56,449 nucleotides of DNA, taken from assembly GCA_024278315.1 (NCBI GenBank), contig JAJRTL010000338.1, forward strand, positions 1 through 56,449, written 5' to 3'. This DNA is from Planctomycetota bacterium (GTDB lineage: Bacteria > Planctomycetota > UBA1135 > GCA-002748355). Positions 5,094 to 51,501 of the stretch are shown here, in pieces (the stretch's first letter is position 1; each line of letters opens with the position of its first letter). Under the pieces are notes generated by a model. That model did no database searches, was not told where the DNA came from, and saw only the letters and a list, made by a program, of their open reading frames with translations. The translations under genes were made by a program, and so were the position numbers.

Positions 5094-9299
<4,206 letters not shown>

Positions 9300-9405: not shown

Positions 9406-12400
9406 TTATGCAAGAAGCTCTTGCGCGCTGCCCCTGCGGTGCAGCTCGATATCGAGCCCGAGGCCTCTCAGCTCATGGCAGAGGACTCCGAACGAGACCG
9501 GGGTGCCGGGCTCGAGGATGTTCTCGCCCTTGACCATGGCCTCATAGATCTTGGTGCGTCCGTCGACGTCGTCGGACTTCACCGTCAGCAGCTCCTGGAG
9601 GATGGAGGCAGCGCCGTAGGCCTCAAGTGCCCAGACTTCCATCTCACCGAAGCGCTGACCGCCGAAGCGAGCCTTGCCGCCGAGCGGCTGCTGCGTGATG
9701 AGGGAGTAGGGACCCGTGGCACGGGCGTGAACCTTGTCATCGACGAGGTGATGTAGCTTGAGCATGTAGAGATAGCCCACGGTCACCTTCTGCTCGAAGG
9801 GCTCACCGGTGCGTCCATCGTGCAACACGCTCTTGCCGTCGGTCGGCAGGTTGGCACGCCGCAAGGCATCCTCGATCTCGGCCTCGCTGGCCCCATCGAA
9901 GACGGGCGTCACGGCCCGGAAGCCGAGCTTCTTCGCCGCGAAACCCAGGTGGGTCTCGAGGATCTGCCCCACGTTCATGCGCGAGGGCACGCCCAGCGGG
10001 TTCAAGACGATGTCGACAGGCGTTCCGTCTTCGAGGAAGGGCATGTCCTCCTCGGGGAGGATCATCGAGATCACACCCTTGTTGCCGTGACGGCCGGCCA
10101 TCTTGTCCCCCACCGAGATCCGGCGCTTGGAGGCCACGTAGACCTTGACCATCTCGAGGACCCCGGTCGGCAGCTCGTCACCACGCGAAAGCCGGTTGAC
10201 CTTCTTGTTGCGGTCGGCTTCACGCGACTTGATGCGGTCGGAGTATTCCTTGAGCAGGTCCTCGCAGCGCGTGACCAGGCTCTTCTTGCCGGTCTCGTTG
10301 GCCGCATGAAGGATGTGGTCGCGCACCTTCTTGAGATCGGCATACATGACCGTCTCAGGGATGGCCACGGCTTCGCCGCTCTCCGGATCCACGACGTCGG
10401 CCCCGAGGATGCCATTGGCCTCCTCGAGCATGGAGCGTGTGGAGTCCCGGAACTGGACCATGAAGTCCATCTCGGCCTGCTTGATCTCCTGGAGGTTGGC
10501 GTCGCGCTCCGCCTCTGTGAGATTGACCTTGCGGGAGAACTTCTGCGCGTCGATGACGATGCCTTCGACACCGGTTCCGACCTCGAGCGAGGAGTTCTTC
10601 ACATCTTCGCCCGCACGGCCGAAGATGGCGTGCAGCAGTTTCTCCTCGGGAGTCAGCTCGCTCTTGCTCTTGGGCGCCACCTTCCCGACAAGGATATCCC
10701 CCGCATGCACCCGTGTGCCGACGTGGACGATGCCGCTATCGTCGAGATGGGCCAGGGCCTTCTCAGAGACGTTGGGGATGTCGCGAGTGAACTCCTCGCG
10801 CCCCAGCTTGGTTTCCCGGATCTCGATCTCGAACTCGTCGATGTGGATCGATGTGTAGACATCATCCTTGACCAGGCGCTCGCTGAGCAGGATGGCGTCC
10901 TCGAAGTTGTAGCCATCCCAGGTCATGAAGGCGACGAGAAGGTTCTTGCCCAGTGACAGGACGCCGTTGTCCGTGGAAGGACCGTCGGCGATGACCTGCT
11001 TGGCCAGGACCTTGTCTCCTTCCTTGACGATCGGGACCTGGTTGAGACAGGTCTTCTCGTTCAGGCGACGATACTTGCGCAGCTCGTAGATCTCGTCTCC
11101 GACGACAATCTTGGTGGCGTCGGCGAACTTGACCACGCCGTCGCGCTTGGCGCGAACGACCATGCCCGAATTCTGGGCGACGAGATCCTCCATGCCAGTG
11201 CCGACGAGCGGAAGCTCCGACTCCAGCAGGGGCACGGCCTGGCGCTGCATGTTGGAGCCCATGAGCGCACGGTTGGCGTCGTCATGCTCCAGGAAGGGGA
11301 TGAGGCTTGCCGAGACACCCACGATCTCCATCGGAGACACGTCCATGTACTGGACATCCTTCTTGAGGACCTCGTAGGGCTCTCCGCCGATGCGACCGAG
11401 TACCTTGTCATGGATGATGACGCCCTTGGCGTCGCATTCGACATCGGCAGGTATCAGCGTAGCCGCGTCCTCCTGATCGGCTCGGAGCCAGGCTACCTCA
11501 TCGGTCACCCGGCCAGCCTTGACCTTTCGGTAGGGTGCGCGGAGGAAGCCGTACTCGTCGACGGTGCCGAAGATCGCAAGGCTACTGATCAGACCGATGT
11601 TGGTGCCTTCCGGCGTCTCGATCGGACAGAGTCTTCCGTAGTGGGAGGTGTGGACGTCGCGGACTTCGAAGCCTGCGCGCTTCCGGTTGAGCCCGCCTGG
11701 GCCAAGAGCCGACAGACGACGCTCGTGCGCCAACTGCGAAAGCGGATTGGTCTGGTCGACGACCTGACTCAGCTCACCACGAGCAAAGAAGTAGTCGATG
11801 GCGGAGGAGAAGGTCTTGGCGTTGATCAGGTTGCGCGGGGTGATGCCCTCGCCGCCCTCACTGTTGTCCAGGCTCATCCGCTCCTGTGCCGTCCGGCGCA
11901 GCTTGAGCAGGCCCTTGCGAAACTCCTCGCCGGCCAGCTCCATGATGGTGCGCACACGGCGGTTGCCAAGATGGTCGATGTCATCGAGTCCACCCTCTCC
12001 GGCCCTGAGCGTCAGCAGGTACTGCGTCGCATTGACGAAGTCCGTGGGCTGCAGGGTCATCTGGTCCTCGTCGATCTTCTGCCCGAACTTGCGGTTCAGA
12101 CGGAAACGGCCGACGCGGCCCAAACGGTAGCGACTCGAGTCGAAGAACTTCTCGTTGAAGAGTGCGCTCGCCTTCTCCTGGTTCGGCGGGTTGCCAGGAC
12201 GCAGGCGCTGGTAGATCTTGAGGAGAGCCTCCTCGTGCGAAGTCGTCATGTCTTCGCGCAGCGAGTTCAAGATCAGCAGATCCTCGGGCTCGCGGATGAC
12301 CTCGACCTGTGCGATTTCCTCATCGGCGATGTGGGCCGCAGCCTCCTCGGTGATGATGTCGCCCGAGGCGACGAGTGCCTCGCCAGTCGAGAGGTTGACA

Positions 12401-44823: not shown

Positions 44824-45027
44824 CCTTCGGACTCTTCATGCCCTTGGCAGGTCGCCGACCCCGGTAAGAAGGCCTCGGATCGCAACCATGCAGAGCCAAC
44901 CGCCAGGCTTGCGGCCCTGGACCGAAAGATCAGCGTCAGACGCATCGAGGTCATGAATCGTTCGGGCTAGTGCGGGCCTGCGAGGGCAGAAGAGGATTCG
45001 CCTGCTCAGGAATCGTGCGATCCGCCC

Positions 45028-45059
45028 TTGACCCCGTACCCAGGCACAGGGTCTACAAT
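45028..45059 (+). promoter_or_regulatory. MerR-type promoter: TTGACC, 20-nt spacer, TACAAT, upstream of merR
   Basis: TTGACC at 45028-45033 and TACAAT at 45054-45059. The spacer CCGTACCCAGGCACAGGGTC contains a CCGTAC half-site and a GACCC/GGGTC dyad. Confidence 0.5.
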
Positions 45060-45090
45060 CTCCCCATCACCGAGACCGGGAGAGAATCGC

Positions 45091-45582
45091 ATGCATGCAA
45101 GACGGGAGAGAGGCAGCCTCAGGATCGGGCAGGTCGCAGAAGCCGCAGAGGTTCACATCGAGACGCTGCGCTACTACGAGCGCAAGGGGCTGCTGCCCCT
45201 GCCGCCGAGGACGCTCTCCAACTACCGGCTCTATCCCGAGGATGCGGTGCTACGCGTGCGCTTCATCAAACGGGCGCAGGAGCTGGGCTTCACGCTTGTC
45301 GAAATCCGGGAGCTACTCGAGCTGGGCCAGCAGAAGGATGGGGACTGCGCCGAAATCTGCCAGCGGGCCCGGGACAAGATCCAGGAGATCGAAGCCAAGA
45401 TCGCAAGCCTGCGGGCCATGAAGAGGAGTCTGACCCGACTCGAAGGGGCCTGTGCAGGGAGCGGTCCGCTGTCGGAATGCCCCATCCTCGAAGCCATGCA
45501 GACCGGAACCCGGAAGACAGGGATACAGAAGGCAGGCAGGAAGCCTGCCATGAGCAAGAAGAAGAAAGGAGCAAGGAAATGA
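45091..45582 (+). CDS. merR: Hg(II)-type MerR-family transcriptional regulator
   Basis: HTH segment LRIGQVAEAAEVHIETLRYYERKGLL. The Cys pattern DCAEIC ... GACAGSGPLSECPIL gives C...C-x8-C in the same positions as the MerR Hg ligands. Confidence 0.85.
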   Translation: MHARRERGSLRIGQVAEAAEVHIETLRYYERKGLLPLPPRTLSNYRLYPEDAVLRVRFIKRAQELGFTLVEIRELLELGQQKDGDCAEICQRARDKIQEIEAKIASLRAMKRSLTRLEGACAGSGPLSECPILEAMQTGTRKTGIQKAGRKPAMSKKKKGARK

Positions 45583-45839
45583 ACCAGAAGAAGATAGAGG
45601 TGTTTTCTGCAGGATGCTGTCTCTGTGACGAGACGGTAGAACTCGTCCGGAACATGGCCTGTCCCTCCTGCGCGGTCGAGATCCTCGACATGAGGAAGGC
45701 CGAGGTCGCCGAGCGCGCCAAACAACTTGGCGTGGCCCGCGTCCCCGCGGTCGTCATCGACGGCAAACTCGTGTCCTGCTGCGCCGGCACGGGCCCCGAC
45801 AAGGACGAACTCGGCAAGGCCGGTCTCGGCAAGCCCTGA
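45579..45839 (+). CDS. Small thioredoxin-fold protein (glutaredoxin-like, CCLC motif)
   Basis: MNQKKIEVFSAGCCLCDETVELV...VPAVVIDGKLVSCC. Its ATG overlaps the merR stop (ATGA). Confidence 0.7.
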   Translation: MNQKKIEVFSAGCCLCDETVELVRNMACPSCAVEILDMRKAEVAERAKQLGVARVPAVVIDGKLVSCCAGTGPDKDELGKAGLGKP

Positions 45840-45894: not shown

Positions 45895-46470
45895 TCATGG
45901 GTGCATCCGAGGAGTGGGCGACTCGACCTTCTGCACGGTCTTGACCAGGATGTCCACCTGACCGTCGGCCGAGGCCTGGAGCCGACCTCGCAGGCGGAGT
46001 GACTTGCCCACTTGACGCTCAAGGTCCGAATAGACAGAAGCCTCAGCCGGCTCCAGGCTCTTCTTCAGATAGAAGACCTGGATCGGCATCTCCGTCGTCA
46101 ACGAGAGACGTGCCTGACCATCGGCACTCGTGACCTTGTCAAGCTGCCCTTCGACAGCCGCTTCGGACCAGAGCAAGGGGAAGCCTGACATCTTGACCGC
46201 CTCCTGGATGGAGGCGAAGTCGAGGGGCTTGCCCTCGGCTGGTAGGAAAGTGCCCAGTCCCTTTTCGATATCGAAAGAGAAGTTGCGTACGCCAGACCGG
46301 CGCACCAAGGCCCTTTGCAGGGCCCCGCCTCACATGGATCAGGTGACGCCGCCCACCGCAATCGTGATGACGACCGGGCCCTCTGCGAGCGCCTGGTCGG
46401 TGGAAGCACCGGTAGGGCTCGCGCAGGCGAGGGCGAGGAGGGAGAGGAGGACACTGGTTTCCTTCTTCAT
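45895..46470 (-). CDS. Secreted/lipoprotein HMA-domain protein with two in-frame TGA codons at the CxxC positions (predicted selenoprotein, T-U-S-M-U)
   Basis: ATG 46470: MKKETSVLLSLLALACAS...VVITIAVGGVT-TGA(46339-41)-SM-TGA(46330-32)-GGALQRALVRRSGVRNFSFDIEKGLGTFL...IQEAVKMSGF. This gives a complete beta-alpha-beta-beta-alpha-beta HMA pattern only if both TGA are decoded. The frame is continuous: 576 nt, 191 codons plus the stop. Confidence 0.75.
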
Positions 46471-46500: not shown

Positions 46501-47517
46501 TCAGAAACGGGCGCGCATGCCCAGGATGAAACGGTAGTTCTCTTCGAACTGGGAACCCGGAAGTTCCAGGAGGATCGGGAGCTGCACGGCGCTCTCGAAG
46601 AGCAGGTTTTCGCTGACCAGGACCTGGATGCCAGGCGTCAGGAAGATCTTGGTGCCGCCGGAATCATAGACGGTAACGCCGCCAGCGCTGTCCTTCTCCG
46701 CATAGATCGTGTTGAGCTCCAGGACGAGGTTGACCGTCGTCTGCGTGAAGCTCACGTACTTGGCGGGGATGAGCCGGAAAACGCCTCCGATGTCGAAGCG
46801 GTAGCTGTTGCCGAAGCGGAAGTCGTTGGCCTCACTGTTGATCTTGGCAATCAGGTCGCTGTTGACCTGCCAGCGTCCATCCACACGCGTGAAAGCCACA
46901 CCCAGGATCGCGTCCATGCCACCCGACCCGCTCTGCATCGGCTGCGGCAGACGCATACCCCCATCCTCGAGATCCGTGCGCCCCACCGGCAGTTCGAGCC
47001 CGAAGATCGCCGCCGCCTCCGTGGTCTCTCCGAGCCCGGCATCCTGGTAGATGCGTGCCTTGCCCACGACCGGCACGTCACCGATGCCCTGGCTGCGCAG
47101 GGTCTCCTTCTGCCCGCTCCCGGCATTGATCCGGGTCATGCTCTTGTCCAGCCAGGGAATCGTCGCCGAGATCGTCATCTTCTCGTTGATCCCGAAGACG
47201 AGTTTCAGCAAAGCTGCATGCACCGAGAGCTCTTGCGCGCCCTTGTCCTTGTCCGTGTAGACATAGCGCGGAACGACCGCCTGGCCATTGAAGTCCACAG
47301 TGCGCGCGGACTGGGTCACGATCGTGTCATCGTAGAGCAGGCCCAGCTGGATCAGCTGGCCCTCTCGGCTCTCGGGATCGATCTCCTGGGTCCCACCCTG
47401 CTCGCTGACGCGGGCTTCAGGAACGGACACGCCGTTCGCGCAAGCAGGAAGGAGAGCCGCCGCGAGCAGAAAACAGGCTCCAAGAAGCCTGCGGGAGAAT
47501 CGAGTCTCATCAATCAT
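46501..47517 (-). CDS. Outer-membrane beta-barrel channel (resembles the 'MetA-pathway/transporter' OMP family)
   Basis: Signal peptide/lipobox LLPAC, alternating beta-strand pattern, C-terminal ...RFILGMRARF (terminal Phe). It lies 30 nt upstream of the Sec-HMA lipoprotein gene. Confidence 0.7.
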   Translation of the reverse strand: MIDETRFSRRLLGACFLLAAALLPACANGVSVPEARVSEQGGTQEIDPESREGQLIQLGLLYDDTIVTQSARTVDFNGQAVVPRYVYTDKDKGAQELSVHAALLKLVFGINEKMTISATIPWLDKSMTRINAGSGQKETLRSQGIGDVPVVGKARIYQDAGLGETTEAAAIFGLELPVGRTDLEDGGMRLPQPMQSGSGGMDAILGVAFTRVDGRWQVNSDLIAKINSEANDFRFGNSYRFDIGGVFRLIPAKYVSFTQTTVNLVLELNTIYAEKDSAGGVTVYDSGGTKIFLTPGIQVLVSENLLFESAVQLPILLELPGSQFEENYRFILGMRARF

Positions 47518-47525
47518 GGGCGCAG

Positions 47526-47557
47526 ATCCTACAGCCCGTACCCTGGTCCAGACTCAA
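47526..47557 (-). promoter_or_regulatory. Second MerR-type promoter (TTGAGT, 20 nt, TAGGAT) driving the OMP/Sec-HMA operon; probably leaderless
   Basis: Minus-strand read: TTGAGT CTGGACCAGGGTACGGGCTG TAGGAT ctgcgccc ATG. The spacer contains CCAGGGTACGG, the reverse complement of the CCGTACCCTGG-type motif in the merR promoter. Confidence 0.45.
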
Positions 47558-47798
47558 GAGATCTTCGGACAGTTGGGGCTTCGTGGCTTGCGCACAACGA
47601 CGCGCCGGCATCGGACCCTACTGGCTCATGACCATAACAGCCCTTCAACTCCTCCGAGCGGACTCGCGCTCTGCGAGTCGCAGGAAGGCCAACTCACGCG
47701 CACTGCCCTCGAAGTGCCATCGAAGATCAGAGCACGACAAGACCCACCCACTCGACAGAGAACCGTAGGACTTGGGCCATGGTTCACTCGGGGAGAGC

Positions 47799-48310
47799 TC
47801 AGGGAATCCGGATCCGACCGATCGGACTCGGCAGTGGCAGAGTGAGATTCTCATCCTCGAGCTGGATCTTCAGGTCCAGATCTCTTGGTCGTGGTCCATC
47901 CAACCTGTCTTGGTCAGCGAATCTGAACCCAAGCCCATAGGATCTCTCCTCAGGCAAGATGAGGCGCAGCAAGCCGGGCTGCCCCACGGTCCACTCTTCC
48001 AGACCCAACATATGTCCTTTGGACCAGGCCAGTACGTGGGCCACTCCCACTGGCAGCCCCGCGAAGAGCCTCGTCGTGAAACCCCTTGATCAACCACAAG
48101 CCGGTAGGCCCCGACACTCGAGCCACATCTTTCCATTTCTCATATCGTTTGAGATCCTCGATCGGTAGTCGCACGACACGAAGGCAGAATCGTCGCGACT
48201 CGTAGCCCCCCCACATACGCATGAGCCCGAACGACTCAAGGCCTCGCAACGTGCCTTGCCTCGACAGGAATGGCGCGAGATCTCCCAATGCCAACAGCTT
48301 CATCTCCACA
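47799..48310 (-). pseudogene. Frameshifted ORF of unknown function
   Basis: Frame A reads MKLLALGDLAPFLSRQ...GLWLIKGFHDEALRG and degenerates after about 48050. Frame B then reads sensibly (..LPVGVAHVLAWSKGHMLGLEEWTVGQPGLLRLILPEE...). A third fragment may continue to 47645. Confidence 0.35.
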
Positions 48311-48412
48311 CGCATGCAGAAGAGGGACCCACTCCACAACCTGGGAGCAAAGCCCCTGAGCCAAGAGCGAGACACGACGGATCGGAATCACGGGACATTC
48401 CAGGAACCCATC

Positions 48413-48430
48413 ATACCCCCCATGGGTATA
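48413..48430 (+). promoter_or_regulatory. CsoR-type operator-like inverted repeat ATACCC-N5-GGGTAT overlapping a TATACT -10-like box
   Basis: ATACCCcccatGGGTATA at 48413-48430. TATACT at 48427-48432 lies 6 nt before the ATG of the CsoR-family gene, and no SD is present. Confidence 0.45.
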
Positions 48431-48438
48431 CTGGCGTC

Positions 48439-48726
48439 ATGAAGACTGCGACCGGATATCTCGATCTCGATGCCAAGAAGCGACTCCTCAACCGACTGTC
48501 CCGTATCGAGGGGCAGATCCGGGCACTCAAGGCCATGGTGGAGGAGGAGCGCTGTGCAGACGACATCCTGGTTCAAGGCGCGGCGGCAAGGGGGGCTCTG
48601 GGCCAGTTCCTGGCCAAGATGCTGGAGGCCCACCTGAGGGACTGCGTCCACAACTGCATGGAAGGCGATCGGCTGCAGGTCTCGGAGCGGCTCATGAAGG
48701 CCGTCTCGACGGCGCTCAAGCTCTGA
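48439..48726 (+). CDS. CsoR/RcnR/FrmR-family (DUF156) metal-sensing repressor, C-H-C type
   Basis: LLNRLSRIEGQIRALKAMVEEERCADDIL...EAHLRDCVHNC, showing Cys...His-x3-Cys ligand spacing. Confidence 0.85.
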   Translation: MKTATGYLDLDAKKRLLNRLSRIEGQIRALKAMVEEERCADDILVQGAAARGALGQFLAKMLEAHLRDCVHNCMEGDRLQVSERLMKAVSTALKL

Positions 48727-48771
48727 GACACCGGAGCTCTCCAGAGCGGAACACAGGGAGGAGAAGCGATC

Positions 48772-48936
48772 ATGGACAGCGTGCAGAAGGAAGAAAAGCT
48801 CGGTCGTGTCGCTGTAACCGGCTCACTCCTGGCTGCCATCGAGGGTGGCGGCTATTCAGCAAGACTGGAGGGCCGCCCCACGAGTCCGCCCGCGGGCCAA
48901 CCCACCAAGCGTCCCACAAGTCGCCCTGGCCGTTGA
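48772..48936 (+). CDS. Small 54-aa ORF of unknown function
   Basis: Strong SD (GGGAGGAGAAG) 9 nt before the ATG. The product is MDSVQKEEKLGRVAVTGSLLAAIEGGG...; its stop TGA overlaps the TTG at 48933 of the merA frame. No recognisable MerT/MerP/MerC features. Confidence 0.3.
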   Translation: MDSVQKEEKLGRVAVTGSLLAAIEGGGYSARLEGRPTSPPAGQPTKRPTSRPGR

Positions 48937-48956
48937 GCAGGACCCGGAACGTAATC

Positions 48957-50393
48957 ATGAACGAGAAGAAGTCATCGGAACGTCCCTCCCACCTCGTCAT
49001 CGTCGGAGGCGGCTCGGCCGCCTTCTCCGCGGCCCTCACGGCCGAAGGGCTCGGTCTCGAGGTCACGCTGATCAACGAGGGCCTGCCCATCGGCGGCACC
49101 TGCGTCAATGTGGGTTGCGTGCCGTCGAAGGCCCTGCTGCGCGCAGCCGAGAGTCTGCACCGCGCGCAACACACACCCTTCGATGGGATCGGTGCGAGTG
49201 GAGAGGTCACCGACTTCGCAGCCGTCATGGCGCAGAAGCAATCCCTGGTCGAAGGGCTGCGTCAGGTCAAGTATCTGGACGTCATCTCCGGCAAGAACAA
49301 GATCCGACGCGTCGAAGGACGCGGACGATTCGTGGCCAAGGATCGGGTGTCCGTGGAGACGCAGGAAGGCACGCGCGAGATCCAGGGAGATCTCTTTTTG
49401 ATCGCGACCGGAACTCGGCCAGCTTCACCGGCGATCCCCGGGCTCGACGAGGTGCCCTGCCTGGACAACGAGTCGGCCTTCGAGCTCTGTGAACTCCCCG
49501 AGTCAATGATCGTCCTGGGCGGTCGCTACATCGCGCTGGAGATGGCGCAGATGTTCGCGCGCTTCGGCACGAAGATCACGGTCCTGCAGCGCTCGGCCAG
49601 CATCCTGCCGACCGAGAGCGAAGCGCTGACGAGCGCGCTTGCTGGCTACCTGACCCAGGAGGGACTCGACATCCAGACCTCCGTGCGCATCGAGCAAATC
49701 GAGGAGGAGGGAGGGCAGATCCTGATCCGGGCGACACAGAATGGCGAGCCCAGGGAATACCGCGCCGCCAGGCTTCTGAGCGCGCTCGGCCGCGCGCCCA
49801 ACACCGAGGGCCTGGGGTTGGAGGAGATCGGCGTCGCGCTGACCGACAGAGACTTCGTGGCGATCGACGAGACCTTGCAGACTTCCCAGCCTGGGATCTT
49901 CGCCGCAGGCGACGTCATCGATGACCCGAGCTTCGTCTATACCGCTGCCTTCGAGGGCGCGCTTGCGGTGCGCAATGGCGTCGACGGTGCTCTGGAGAAG
50001 CGCGACTACACAGCGCTGCCCTGGGTCGTCTTCACCGATCCACAGGTGGCCGGCGTGGGGCTCGACGAGAAGCAGGCCGCCGATCTGGGGCTCGTGGTCG
50101 ACAGCCGGACCCTCCCGCTGGACCAGGTGCCGCGCAGCCTGGCAGCTCGCGACACCCGCGGATTCGTCCAACTGATCCGCGATCCTGAGCGGGATGTCCT
50201 GGTCGGTGGCCGGGTGCTCGCGGCCGAGGGCTCGGAACTTCTCATGGAGATCGCAATGGCCATCCGCTACCAGATTCCCGTGCGGGAGCTGGCCCGAAGC
50301 TTCCACGCCTATCTCACTCTCTCGGAGGCGGTCAAGCTGGCGGCCATCACCTTCGAGAAGGACATCAAGGAACTCAGTTGTTGTGCCTCGTAG
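48957..50393 (+). CDS. merA: Mercuric reductase (core enzyme without an NmerA domain)
   Basis: VIVGGGSAAF (FAD), redox-active GGTCVNVGCVPSK, and the C-terminal KELSCCAS vicinal Cys pair diagnostic of MerA. An alternative TTG start lies at 48933. Confidence 0.9.
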   Translation: MNEKKSSERPSHLVIVGGGSAAFSAALTAEGLGLEVTLINEGLPIGGTCVNVGCVPSKALLRAAESLHRAQHTPFDGIGASGEVTDFAAVMAQKQSLVEGLRQVKYLDVISGKNKIRRVEGRGRFVAKDRVSVETQEGTREIQGDLFLIATGTRPASPAIPGLDEVPCLDNESAFELCELPESMIVLGGRYIALEMAQMFARFGTKITVLQRSASILPTESEALTSALAGYLTQEGLDIQTSVRIEQIEEEGGQILIRATQNGEPREYRAARLLSALGRAPNTEGLGLEEIGVALTDRDFVAIDETLQTSQPGIFAAGDVIDDPSFVYTAAFEGALAVRNGVDGALEKRDYTALPWVVFTDPQVAGVGLDEKQAADLGLVVDSRTLPLDQVPRSLAARDTRGFVQLIRDPERDVLVGGRVLAAEGSELLMEIAMAIRYQIPVRELARSFHAYLTLSEAVKLAAITFEKDIKELSCCAS

Positions 50394-50433
50394 AACGCAG
50401 GCGCACAGTCATCCTGAACAGGAGCAGCAAACC

Positions 50434-51501
50434 ATGAAGAACCAGTCCATGACAGCCGCCGCAACGCTGCTCTCGCTGGCAGCACTTCTCCCGACCGGCC
50501 TGGATGCCCAGGCCACGTCGAAGAAAGCGGCAACCGAGGGGAAGTCCCGCATCATGACCGTCGACATCACCGGTATGACCTGAGGGATGGGCTGAGCGCC
50601 GCAGGTGCAGAAGGCCCTGCAGTCCCTACCGTGGGTAGGGAAAGTCCAAGTAGATTTCGAAAGCAAGACCGCCAAGGTCGAAGTCGAGAAGACTCGTTTC
50701 GATCCGGCCAAGATCATTGCAGTCCTCACGAAGGCCGGCTATGGCGGCAAGATCCAAGCCAAGGATCTCGCGAAGGCCAAGGCAATGGACTCCGTCATCG
50801 TTTTCCGCGTCCTTGGCATGAAGAAGGCCAAGTCGGGCGCGACCTGAATGGGCTGACCGGATGCGGTCACCGAGGCCCTGGATGGGTCTCACCAAAGCAA
50901 GAAGGTCACATGGGACTACGAGAAGGATCTCATCAGGATCGAGTACGATCCCCAGAAGAGCTCTCCGGAGAAGTTGGCGGCGATCATCCGCAAGCTGGGC
51001 TACAAGGTCGAGACCGTGAAACCTGCGGACTCGAAGAAAACGGTCAGCCGCAAGGTGGTCCCGCCAAGCCTCGCCATCGGAAACCTGGCCCCGATACCGA
51101 CGAAAGCACCCGACTTCTTCCGCGAGGCCTTCGCGCGGGCGCAGAAGAGCGGACGGCCAATTGTCATCGACTTCTGGGCGACCTGGTGCGCGCCCTGCAA
51201 GAAGCTCAAGCTGCTGACGCTGAAGGACCCCAAGGTGGAGAAGATCCTGGAGTCCGTAGAACTGATCTTCGTCGATACCGATACATACCCGGAACTGGCA
51301 AAGGCCTACAGGGTGACGAGCATTCCGGACCTCCTCTTCGTCGACCGAACCGGCAGGATCGCTGACCGTCTCCGCGGATTCGAGAGCGCCGCTCCCTTCG
51401 TGAAGCGGCTGCAGAAACTTCTCGCGATCCGTCCCGCATCCCGCCTGACTTCCCGCCCTGCATCCCGCCCTGCATCTCGCCCTGCATCCAGACGACGTTG
51501 A
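50434..51501 (+). CDS. Secreted 2xHMA-thioredoxin fusion protein with four in-frame TGA codons at the metal-ligand positions (predicted selenoprotein)
   Basis: AGGAG lies 9 nt before ATG 50434. Signal peptide MKNQSMTAAATLLSLAALLPTGLDAQA. HMA1 reads ..IMTVDITGMT-TGA(50581)-GMG-TGA(50593)-APQVQKAL.. and HMA2 reads ..VFRVLGMKKAKSGAT-TGA(50845)-MG-TGA(50854)-PDAVTEAL... A Trx domain follows (FWATWCAPCKK, Cys codons at 51187 and 51196), then an (SRPA)n tail. The three track ORFs 50194-50583, 50605-50847 and 50974-51501 are all in one frame. Confidence 0.8.

Follow-up and report, generated by a model that had tools for sequence, protein, structure and literature searches.

A predicted two-selenocysteine HMA lipoprotein and its outer-membrane barrel partner in Planctomycetota

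Introduction

Can a coding region broken by two in-frame TGA codons that lie almost side by side be a single selenoprotein gene, and what would its product do in the cell envelope? This question is raised by a locus on contig JAJRTL010000338.1 (GCA_024278315.1, Planctomycetota bacterium), the whole of which, 56,449 nt, was analysed and is hereafter called the window. On its minus strand, between positions 46470 and 45895, lies a gene for an exported protein with an HMA-type metal-binding domain, in which TGA occupies both metal-ligand codons and which directly follows a gene for an outer-membrane barrel. In this report, we mainly address whether this stretch is one real gene, how its TGA codons are likely to be decoded, whether it forms a unit with the barrel gene, and which metal such a unit would handle.

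HMA selenoproteins with a UxxU motif (U, selenocysteine, Sec) are not new as a class, having been catalogued in the NCBIfam model NF041115 'UxxU_metal_bind' and first predicted in a study of Olavius symbionts. The new elements here are the combination of a lipoprotein with an OB-fold, the partnership with a barrel, and the genomic context. A preliminary description of the window had already proposed the Sec-encoding lipoprotein gene and its pairing with the barrel gene; the catalogued NF041115 kind, the C-terminal OB-fold and a MerR-type regulator beside the pair were recognised in addition to it.

Reading frame and UGA codons

The gene and the two codons in question are as follows (P0009 and P0035 are homologues free of TGA).

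45895..46470, minus strand: complete gene of a predicted selenoprotein with two Sec codons, from direct reading of the strand and full-length orthologues of like structure
46339..46341, minus strand: first predicted Sec codon (UGA1), residue 44, first ligand position of the CxxC loop; TGA in 13 of 13 lineages, Cys in P0009 and P0035
46330..46332, minus strand: second predicted Sec codon (UGA2), residue 47, second ligand position; TGA in 13 of 13 lineages, Cys in P0009 and P0035

The open reading frame (ORF) runs from an ATG at 46470 to the stop TGA at 45895-45897 and spans 576 nt, or 192 codons (191 amino acids plus stop), with only two internal in-frame stops, both of them TGA. Read through these codons, the protein is MKKETSVLLSLLALACASPTG...ITIAVGGVT-U-SM-U-GGALQRALVRRSGVRNF..., with AVGGVT-U-SM-U-GGALQRAL around the motif, and the UxxU lies in an HMA-like metal loop (GGVT-U-SM-U-GG). 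The coordinates and the frame given in the preliminary description were right. A program-made ORF list holds the 3′ part alone (45895-46308, TTG start), and a family member in GenBank, HED65063.1, is annotated as a truncated hypothetical protein. A true start near 46308, which had been named as the alternative, was looked for among homologues, and their upstream parts proved instead to be conserved and in frame.

Genome-wide reassignment of TGA was ruled out: since TGA is the ordinary stop of the lipoprotein and barrel genes, and terminates many other genes as well, the recoding is local and does not reflect an altered genetic code. The window holds six such codons in three HMA domains (50581, 50593, 50845, 50854, 46339 and 46330), a count on which the earlier claim of system-level Sec use had been based and which was correct. 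When the window was scanned for other in-frame TGA codons of this kind, nothing but antisense-frame artefacts emerged besides these six.

Conservation of the UGA pair among homologues

The pattern GG[VI][TAK]-TGA-xx-TGA is present in all 13 lineages whose DNA was read, at 22-60% protein identity. These lineages comprise the window, L001/L002, L003, L006, L007, L008, L010, L011/L012 and five loci found via the barrel gene, and they come from independent assemblies in ENA, JGI, Logan and NCBI; L006, L007, L008, L010 and L011/L012 are 22-40% identical to the window protein. Because both TGA codons are kept throughout these independent assemblies, an agreement far above chance, sequencing error and pseudogenisation are excluded.

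As called in protein collections, most homologues lack the region of interest. A word-index search with the full-length protein (U written as C) returned two relatives only, both C-terminal ORFs of about 133 amino acids that start just past the second TGA, and the DNA 5′ of these ORFs encodes a like signal peptide, GGVT, and TGA at both ligand codons. An exhaustive profile search gave 55 clusters (50% identity) at E <= 0.001, and about 36 of the 39 best family representatives begin directly after the CxxC position, which identifies them as truncated calls. The family is thus systematically truncated by gene callers, and the splitting that had been noted in the window extends to its relatives. 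Three full-length relatives are free of TGA, namely P0009 (GGITCSIC), P0035 (DGISCSLC) and P0042, which has a single Cys.

The part upstream of the TGA pair behaves as coding sequence. Among the 43 codons 5′ of UGA1, 26 are identical between the window and L001, 9 differ synonymously and 8 non-synonymously, a ratio that argues that the upstream part is translated. The coding frame is conserved on both sides of the pair, and the signal peptide, the beta-1 strand and GGVT are kept upstream in homologues; the 3′ piece alone has neither a conserved start codon nor a signal peptide among them. Positions 46470-45895 of the minus strand therefore constitute one real gene, encoding an exported protein with an HMA domain and an OB-fold, in which the two ligand positions of the HMA loop are both UGA.

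When a collection holding a single genome for each GTDB species was scanned with the Sec-HMA alignment, no loci were found. Two candidates from a scan of metagenome contigs with a GFELLWLE-subgroup alignment, L004 and L005, were rejected as spurious out-of-frame matches. A separate group of weak hits (P0041, P0043, P0045, P0048-P0050, P0052 and P0056; M[YF]NIQKAVSRL[DE]FAP...) starts where HMA alpha-1 would follow CxxC, and this group may be another truncated Sec-HMA family.

RNA hairpins downstream of the UGA codons

Two hairpins follow the codon pair within the coding sequence, both derived from per-sequence folds and both present in 13 of 13 lineages.

46306..46327, minus strand: hairpin H1 (CGGGGCCCU-GCAA-AGGGCCUUG), seen when the 45-nt H1-H2 stretch is folded
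46287..46305, minus strand: hairpin H2 (GUGCGCC-GGUCU-GGCGUAC), the best candidate for a Sec insertion sequence (SECIS) element

When the 45-nt stretch after UGA2 is folded alone, it forms two adjacent hairpins in the same register in every lineage; in folds of the whole region, the bases of H1 and H2 are paired otherwise in a few lineages. The loop of H1 starts 20 nt past UGA1 and 11 nt past UGA2, and that of H2 starts 40 nt past UGA1 and 31 nt past UGA2. H1 usually carries a tetraloop, with stem sequences that differ in L006, L007 and L008, and H2 has the general form CGCC-[AG]GU..-GGCG. The bacterial SECIS model calls for a stem-loop 16-37 nt past the UGA, with a loop of 3-9 nt, a minimum free energy of at most -7.5 kcal/mol, and a G within the first two loop positions followed by G or U (PMC13188914). 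The loop of H2 has such a G followed by G or U in all 13 lineages.

Several comparisons support the structure. The named H1/H2 structure pairs 86% of cells, as against 28-57% in controls with slid partners, and RNAalifold recovers both helices independently. The hairpin sequence of the window folds better than 197 of 200 shuffled versions, and about 55 nt after UGA2 are almost invariant in the three closest lineages, third codon positions included.

We read H2 as the putative SECIS for UGA decoding; H1 may have an auxiliary part or be the element for UGA1. At the second HMA site of a neighbouring gene, a single hairpin lies in range of both UGA codons (22 and 31 nt), so that one SECIS for two codons is also plausible. 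Taken with the conservation of the codon pair, these features strongly suggest that both UGA codons are decoded as Sec by means of a coding-sequence SECIS just downstream, which would create a diselenolate (UxxU) metal site.

The Cys-form homologue L009 (385-1026; GGITCSIC) retains a 10-bp hairpin at the place of H1, has a degraded H2 and lacks a barrel gene upstream, a combination that suggests a fairly recent Sec-to-Cys conversion.

Domain architecture of the lipoprotein

Three further elements of the gene were delimited.

46423..46470, minus strand: signal peptide with lipobox (MKKETSVLLSLLALAC; Cys16 the predicted lipidated residue), from the sequence pattern
46180..46365, minus strand: HMA domain of ferredoxin-like beta-alpha-beta-beta-alpha-beta type, residues 36-97, from Pfam PF00403 and AlphaFold2 (AF2) models
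45922..46173, minus strand: C-terminal OB-fold domain, residues ~100-183, from an AF2 model of residues 48-191 and Foldseek

By its pattern, the N-terminus, MKKETSVLLSLLALAC/AS, matches a lipobox (LALAC/AS), in agreement with what had been claimed for it, and the corresponding position holds a lipobox Cys in 8 of the 10 readable Sec-form N-termini and in the Cys-form P0009, with ordinary signal peptides in L007 and L011. The protein is thus probably lipid-anchored, as judged from the pattern. The Pfam HMA model PF00403 matches residues 36-97, with U written as C, at 26.1 bits against a cut-off of 24.8. The AF2 model of the natural Cys homologue P0009, with a predicted local distance difference test (pLDDT) score of 84, consists of a lipoprotein leader, a linker, the HMA fold and a second domain, and its HMA part superposes on MerP (1osd_A) with a template-modelling (TM) score of 0.73 in Foldseek; in this fold the two ligands belong to the beta1-alpha1 loop and the beginning of alpha1.

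Modelling of the C-terminal domain had been proposed as a check in the preliminary description, and it revealed an OB-fold: window residues 48-191 were modelled at pLDDT 91.6, with the HMA part forming alpha1-beta2-beta3-alpha2-beta4 and the OB domain showing the order E-E-E-H-E-E in the AF2 models, P0009 included, which is the order of a closed five-stranded beta-barrel whose helix lies between strands 3 and 4. Foldseek against the PDB matched the C-terminal domain to the OB-folds of SSB, LysRS-N and Stn1 (E about 3e-4, TM 0.5-0.65), and a sequence search of the PDB with the lipoprotein family gave no significant match. An RGRxHxH motif, absent from the window protein, occupies the last OB strands of most relatives, and in two lineages, L016 and L018, the protein is shorter and has no OB domain.

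Between the window and L001, the OB domain (45922-46173) differs non-synonymously at 71 of 121 codons, whereas the neighbouring genes retain 86-91% protein identity.

The outer-membrane barrel partner

46501..47517, minus strand: gene of the partner outer-membrane barrel, 338 amino acids, Pfam PF13557 Phenol_MetA_deg, 30 nt upstream of the lipoprotein gene

The barrel protein scores 27.6 bits with PF13557 (cut-off 22), has a lipobox-like N-terminus of its own (LLPAC) and ends in Phe; the family is marked by a YDDTIVTxSARTxDF motif together with this C-terminal Phe. A sequence search of the PDB with the barrel protein gave no significant match. The 30-nt gap and the pairing of the two genes had been stated before, together with the question of whether the pair is conserved as a unit in related genomes. 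In 11 of 11 Sec-form loci with upstream DNA, the gene immediately preceding the lipoprotein gene, in the same orientation, encodes a homologous barrel; it occurs intact in the window, L001/L002, L003, L007, L010, L011/L012, L013, L014 (= L019/L020), L016 and L018, and as a truncated fusion in L017. As the pair stands alone among unrelated genes in L013 and the L014 lineage, the lipoprotein and barrel genes are the conserved core, and they constitute a conserved two-gene envelope module, in support of the earlier interpretation.

The barrel alignment, used to scan a single genome for each GTDB species, gave six loci, all in metagenome-assembled genomes (MAGs) of Planctomycetota (Phycisphaerales, Planctomycetia and unclassified), several of them of hydrothermal origin; the window barrel is 63% identical to that of a Phycisphaerales MAG, in keeping with a planctomycete origin of the window. 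Genomes with the pair include the Planctomycetota MAGs OFTM394 (GCA_029259775.1), HyVt-455 (GCA_011053145.1) and HyVt-576.

In L017 (5150-6109; MAG N075bin59), barrel residues 1-191 run in frame into the Sec-HMA gene at ...GRDGVRDGGVK-U-PI-U, which represents either a deletion joining both genes or an assembly artefact.

Genes in the neighbourhood

The plus strand on both sides of the pair carries a regulator, a thioredoxin-fold gene and a mer-type operon.

45109..45582, plus strand: MerR-family metal-responsive regulator, convergent with the pair, start codon uncertain; NCBIfam TIGR02051 is the best model
45579..45839, plus strand: small thioredoxin-fold protein (Thioredoxin_3 / MTH895-ArsE-like, with CC..C and C..C motifs), from domain models
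48439..51501, plus strand: mer-type operon of a CsoR-type repressor, a merT-HMA remnant, merA and a 2xHMA-thioredoxin gene, from domain models and comparison with L001
48439-48726, plus strand: CsoR/RcnR-family repressor with Cu-type Cys-His-Cys, from a domain model; kept in L001 and L002
48772-48936, plus strand: merT-HMA remnant, internally deleted, 54 codons in frame, from comparison with the 224-amino-acid L001 protein
48957-50393, plus strand: merA, matching MerA TIGR02053 at 504 bits (cut-off 454)
50434-51501, plus strand: gene of an exported 2xHMA(Sec pairs)-thioredoxin protein, from direct reading and domain models

A MerR-like gene adjoins the module in the window, L011, L016, L017 and L018. 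The Hg-responsive MerR is the best NCBIfam model for these proteins, at 130-137 bits (131.5 bits in the window, with TIGR02051), and they carry three Cys aligned with C82, C117 and C126 of MerR. A Thioredoxin_3-type protein is encoded beside the module in the window, L003 and L011. In the hydrothermal-vent lineage (L019 7455-7826; L020 687-1058), its place directly upstream of the barrel is taken by an ArsC/Spx-family thioredoxin-fold protein. A 289-amino-acid ORF at 44970-45839 on the plus strand is misleading, the real genes being the MerR regulator in another frame and the Thioredoxin_3 protein, which overlaps the stop of the regulator.

Within the mer-type operon, the merT-HMA remnant has kept ~23 residues from the start and ~39 from the end of the L001 protein, apparently joined at an LLAAI/LLKAI repeat. 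With merT reduced to this remnant and merA kept, the operon has lost its dedicated importer. MerA exceeds the TIGR02053 cut-off and has the C-terminal CC pair in both the window and L001. The CsoR, which stands at the head of this merA operon in place of merR, may be a CsoR-type mercury (or dual-metal) sensor.

The exported 2xHMA-thioredoxin protein has two Sec pairs, as the preliminary description had said, both conserved in L001. The second, U-MG-U (50845-50856), has two residues between the Sec positions, and the first, for which the same spacing had been given, reads U-GMG-U (50581-50595), with three. Two hairpins lie downstream of each pair. The window, L001, L011 and L017 encode exported HMA(Sec pair)-thioredoxin proteins, and fusions of MerT-HMA or zf-CopZ-MerT-HMA type, which use Cys, adjoin the module in L001, L006, L011 and L017.

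Relation to known systems

Both the window protein and NF041115 are computational predictions of an HMA-type domain in which Sec replaces the two Cys of CxxC and the two UGA codons have 6 nt between them. The window protein nevertheless scores only 19.6 bits with that model (cut-off 95), as a partial match to profile positions 6-49; NF041115 is a single-domain profile of 74 residues, whereas the window encodes a 191-amino-acid lipoprotein with an OB-fold, an obligatory barrel partner and a planctomycete distribution.

MerP (TIGR02052; PDB 1osd), like the window protein, is an exported HMA protein with a two-ligand loop, and among single-domain structures it comes nearest to the P0009 model. 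Mer-type neighbours accompany the lipoprotein gene in part of its loci, with a MerT fusion or a MerR-like gene beside the pair in several lineages and no mer genes in L013 and the L014 lineage. The window protein differs from it in having Sec for Cys, a predicted lipid anchor (MerP is soluble), an extra OB-fold, and a barrel partner instead of an adjacent merT, and it scores 17.8 bits with TIGR02052 (cut-off 92.55). SelL, a eukaryotic selenoprotein, also has a UxxU motif, able to form a diselenide, but it is a thioredoxin-fold protein with a redox function and a SECIS in the 3′-untranslated region, whereas the window protein carries a metal-binding HMA domain.

Sec as a soft-metal ligand is likewise found in the MerT/CopZ fusion-like selenoprotein NF045683 and in other Sec-containing metal transporters (MerT-type, UxxC E1-E2 ATPase). 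These are proteins of the inner membrane and have a single Sec, whereas the MerT-HMA fusions of the loci studied here use Cys. Selenoproteins of the Global Ocean Sampling survey include a 'Mercuric transport protein MerP' and a UxxC P-type ATPase (PMC2398784). The partner barrel resembles the COG4313 / PF13557 channels (Pput2725; PMC4493636) in its Pfam score above the cut-off, its length (~300-340 amino acids) and its C-terminal Phe, but known COG4313 members are linked to the uptake of hydrophobic compounds, and none has been described with a metal-binding lipoprotein partner or MerR control. No paper describing the lipoprotein family was found in the literature searched, which was incomplete.

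Proposed function and alternative explanations

On balance, we consider it probable that the Sec-pair HMA lipoprotein and the barrel act together in the envelope on a soft metal, with Hg(II) as the likeliest candidate. The gene neighbourhood and the fold together argue with moderate force for a module directed at a soft, thiophilic metal and controlled by the putative three-Cys MerR-type activator. Selenolates are ionised at neutral pH, bind Hg much tighter than thiolates and are re-reduced more readily after oxidation, properties that would explain a preference for Sec in an oxidising periplasm. In the proposed scheme, the barrel would admit a metal species through the outer membrane, or would anchor the lipoprotein there. 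On the inner side of the outer membrane (or at the surface), the selenolates of the lipoprotein would trap the metal, faster and tighter than thiols could in an oxidising compartment. The captured metal would then be sequestered and buffered, or relayed to the exported UxxU-HMA-thioredoxin protein and onward to MerT-HMA and cytoplasmic MerA, while the Se-Se or Se-S pairs would be held in the reduced state by the small thioredoxin-fold proteins and by the fused thioredoxin domain. The OB-fold might, as a guess, be a docking or plug element for the barrel.

A number of observations weigh against this reading. With respect to the metal, the transfer of Hg from a selenolate to a thiol is thermodynamically uphill, which favours sequestration over relay, and the three-Cys sensors of the MerR family include sensors of Pb and Cd. 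The MerR-like proteins beside the module stay below the MerR cut-off (150.85 bits), the mer operon of the window is headed by a CsoR-type repressor with a Cu-type C-H-C and has its own merT deleted, and the pair occurs without mer genes in L013 and the L014 lineage. The HxH motif seen in the OB domain of relatives is missing from the window protein. With respect to decoding, no selA, selB, selC (tRNA-Sec) or selD was found in the window, that is, the whole 56-kb contig, or in the fetched loci with their short flanks. Covariation in the hairpins is modest (RNAalifold covariation term -0.5; double changes at 4 pairs). H2 lies 40 nt from UGA1, just beyond the 16-37 nt range, so that neither hairpin alone fits both codons cleanly. 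In the sole Cys-form gene read (L009), H1 is retained and H2 lost; the persistence of H1 there means that protein coding, or a recent switch from Sec to Cys, may account for part of the structure.

The most serious alternative, which we regard as possible though clearly less probable than a mercury module, is that the same selenoprotein acts as an envelope chaperone for Cu(I), Ag(I) or Au(I) (or for Cd or Pb), of the CopZ/CusF kind, in concert with efflux by a resistance-nodulation-division (RND) pump and a P-type ATPase. Cu(I) is bound by HMA domains no less readily than Hg(II); for the window protein, the top-scoring NCBIfam model is that of CopZ, whose 21.7 bits slightly exceed the MerP score; and at 2-10 kb from the pair there are genes for an RND pump, for an outer-membrane efflux protein and for a heavy-metal P-type ATPase, syntenic in L001. 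The Cu-type repressor of the adjacent operon and the Pb and Cd sensors mentioned above point in the same direction, and the OB-fold is reminiscent of CusF. On the other hand, the adjacent regulators score best with the Hg-responsive MerR and not with CueR, and have Cys, not the Ser of CueR, at the first ligand position, and the recurring neighbours of the module are MerT fusions, with MerA in two lineages, rather than CopA or CusCBA. Because all scores of the regulators and HMA domains with metal-specific families are below their cut-offs, neither Hg nor Cu is established.

It is improbable that recoding of the UGA codons yields, always or at times, a residue other than Sec, such as Cys inserted by a tRNA-Sec-like tRNA charged with cysteine or by near-cognate read-through, which would leave an ordinary CxxC. 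Cys-for-Sec recoding systems have been described in some bacteria, Cys-form homologues represent functional alternatives, and the Sec machinery was not seen in the sequences at hand. Yet the strict retention of TGA at both positions in all 13 lineages, together with a SECIS-like hairpin, is the classical signature of a selenoprotein. TGY is one mutation away but rare in the family, which argues that selenium itself is selected, and planctomycetes with complete Sec machinery are documented (PMC4807772). The absence of any recoding, with a pseudogene or with a 43-amino-acid lipopeptide and a 137-amino-acid protein starting at TTG 46308, accords with the 3′ hypothetical protein given by gene callers and GenBank but is strongly disfavoured and very improbable, because a nonsense pair at exactly the two ligand codons would not persist across lineages down to 22% identity, the upstream piece is under purifying selection, and the downstream piece lacks the beta-1 strand and metal loop of the HMA fold as well as a conserved start codon or signal peptide.

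The selenoprotein reading adds to the known selenoproteins a well-supported, phylum-restricted family that is now annotated as truncated 'hypothetical protein'. In this one organism, predicted Sec pairs occupy all three separately exported HMA domains, with six such codons within 5 kb, while the MerT-fused HMA of L001 and the active-site cysteines of MerA stay Cys, a natural experiment on selenium versus sulfur in soft-metal binding in the envelope. The pair also provides a compact natural test case for bacterial SelB and SECIS function with two UGA codons 9 nt apart, and it suggests that mercury or soft-metal handling has an outer-membrane component, a step to which no protein is known to be dedicated in the classical mer system. 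A genetically encodable diselenolate HMA domain could be of interest for mercury capture and biosensing. More speculatively, and in our judgement unlikely in this complete form, planctomycetes might possess a dedicated outer-membrane stage of metal (mercury) handling, made up of a MerR-controlled 12-stranded barrel and a UxxU HMA-OB lipoprotein whose UGA codons are decoded via two tandem hairpins, one per codon. If so, the hairpins would be an undescribed bacterial solution for tandem Sec insertion, and the metal stage would have no counterpart in the classical mer system.

Additional observations at the mer-type loci

Low-complexity tails rich in Pro, Thr, Ser and Arg (RPASRLTSRPASRPASRPASRRR; PTSPPAGQPTKRPTSRPGR) are found on proteins of the mer locus, namely the exported 2xHMA-thioredoxin protein and the merT-HMA remnant (window 51440-51501 and 48880-48936), and on the L001 homologues. 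The 921 bp between the barrel and CsoR genes (47518-48438) have a lower G+C content (0.59) and no convincing ORF. At the syntenic place in L001 (7647-8702) lies a 351-amino-acid NHL-repeat gene on the strand of the barrel, and the window contains no homology to it. The operon of L011 (MAG OFTM394) includes a 75-amino-acid exported Cys-rich peptide (CPGLVECP...CADECP...CC; 6151-6378) and an HMA-thioredoxin lipoprotein (9631-10323), in which the HMA domain reads GIT-U-LG-U and the thioredoxin domain carries a CHLC motif.

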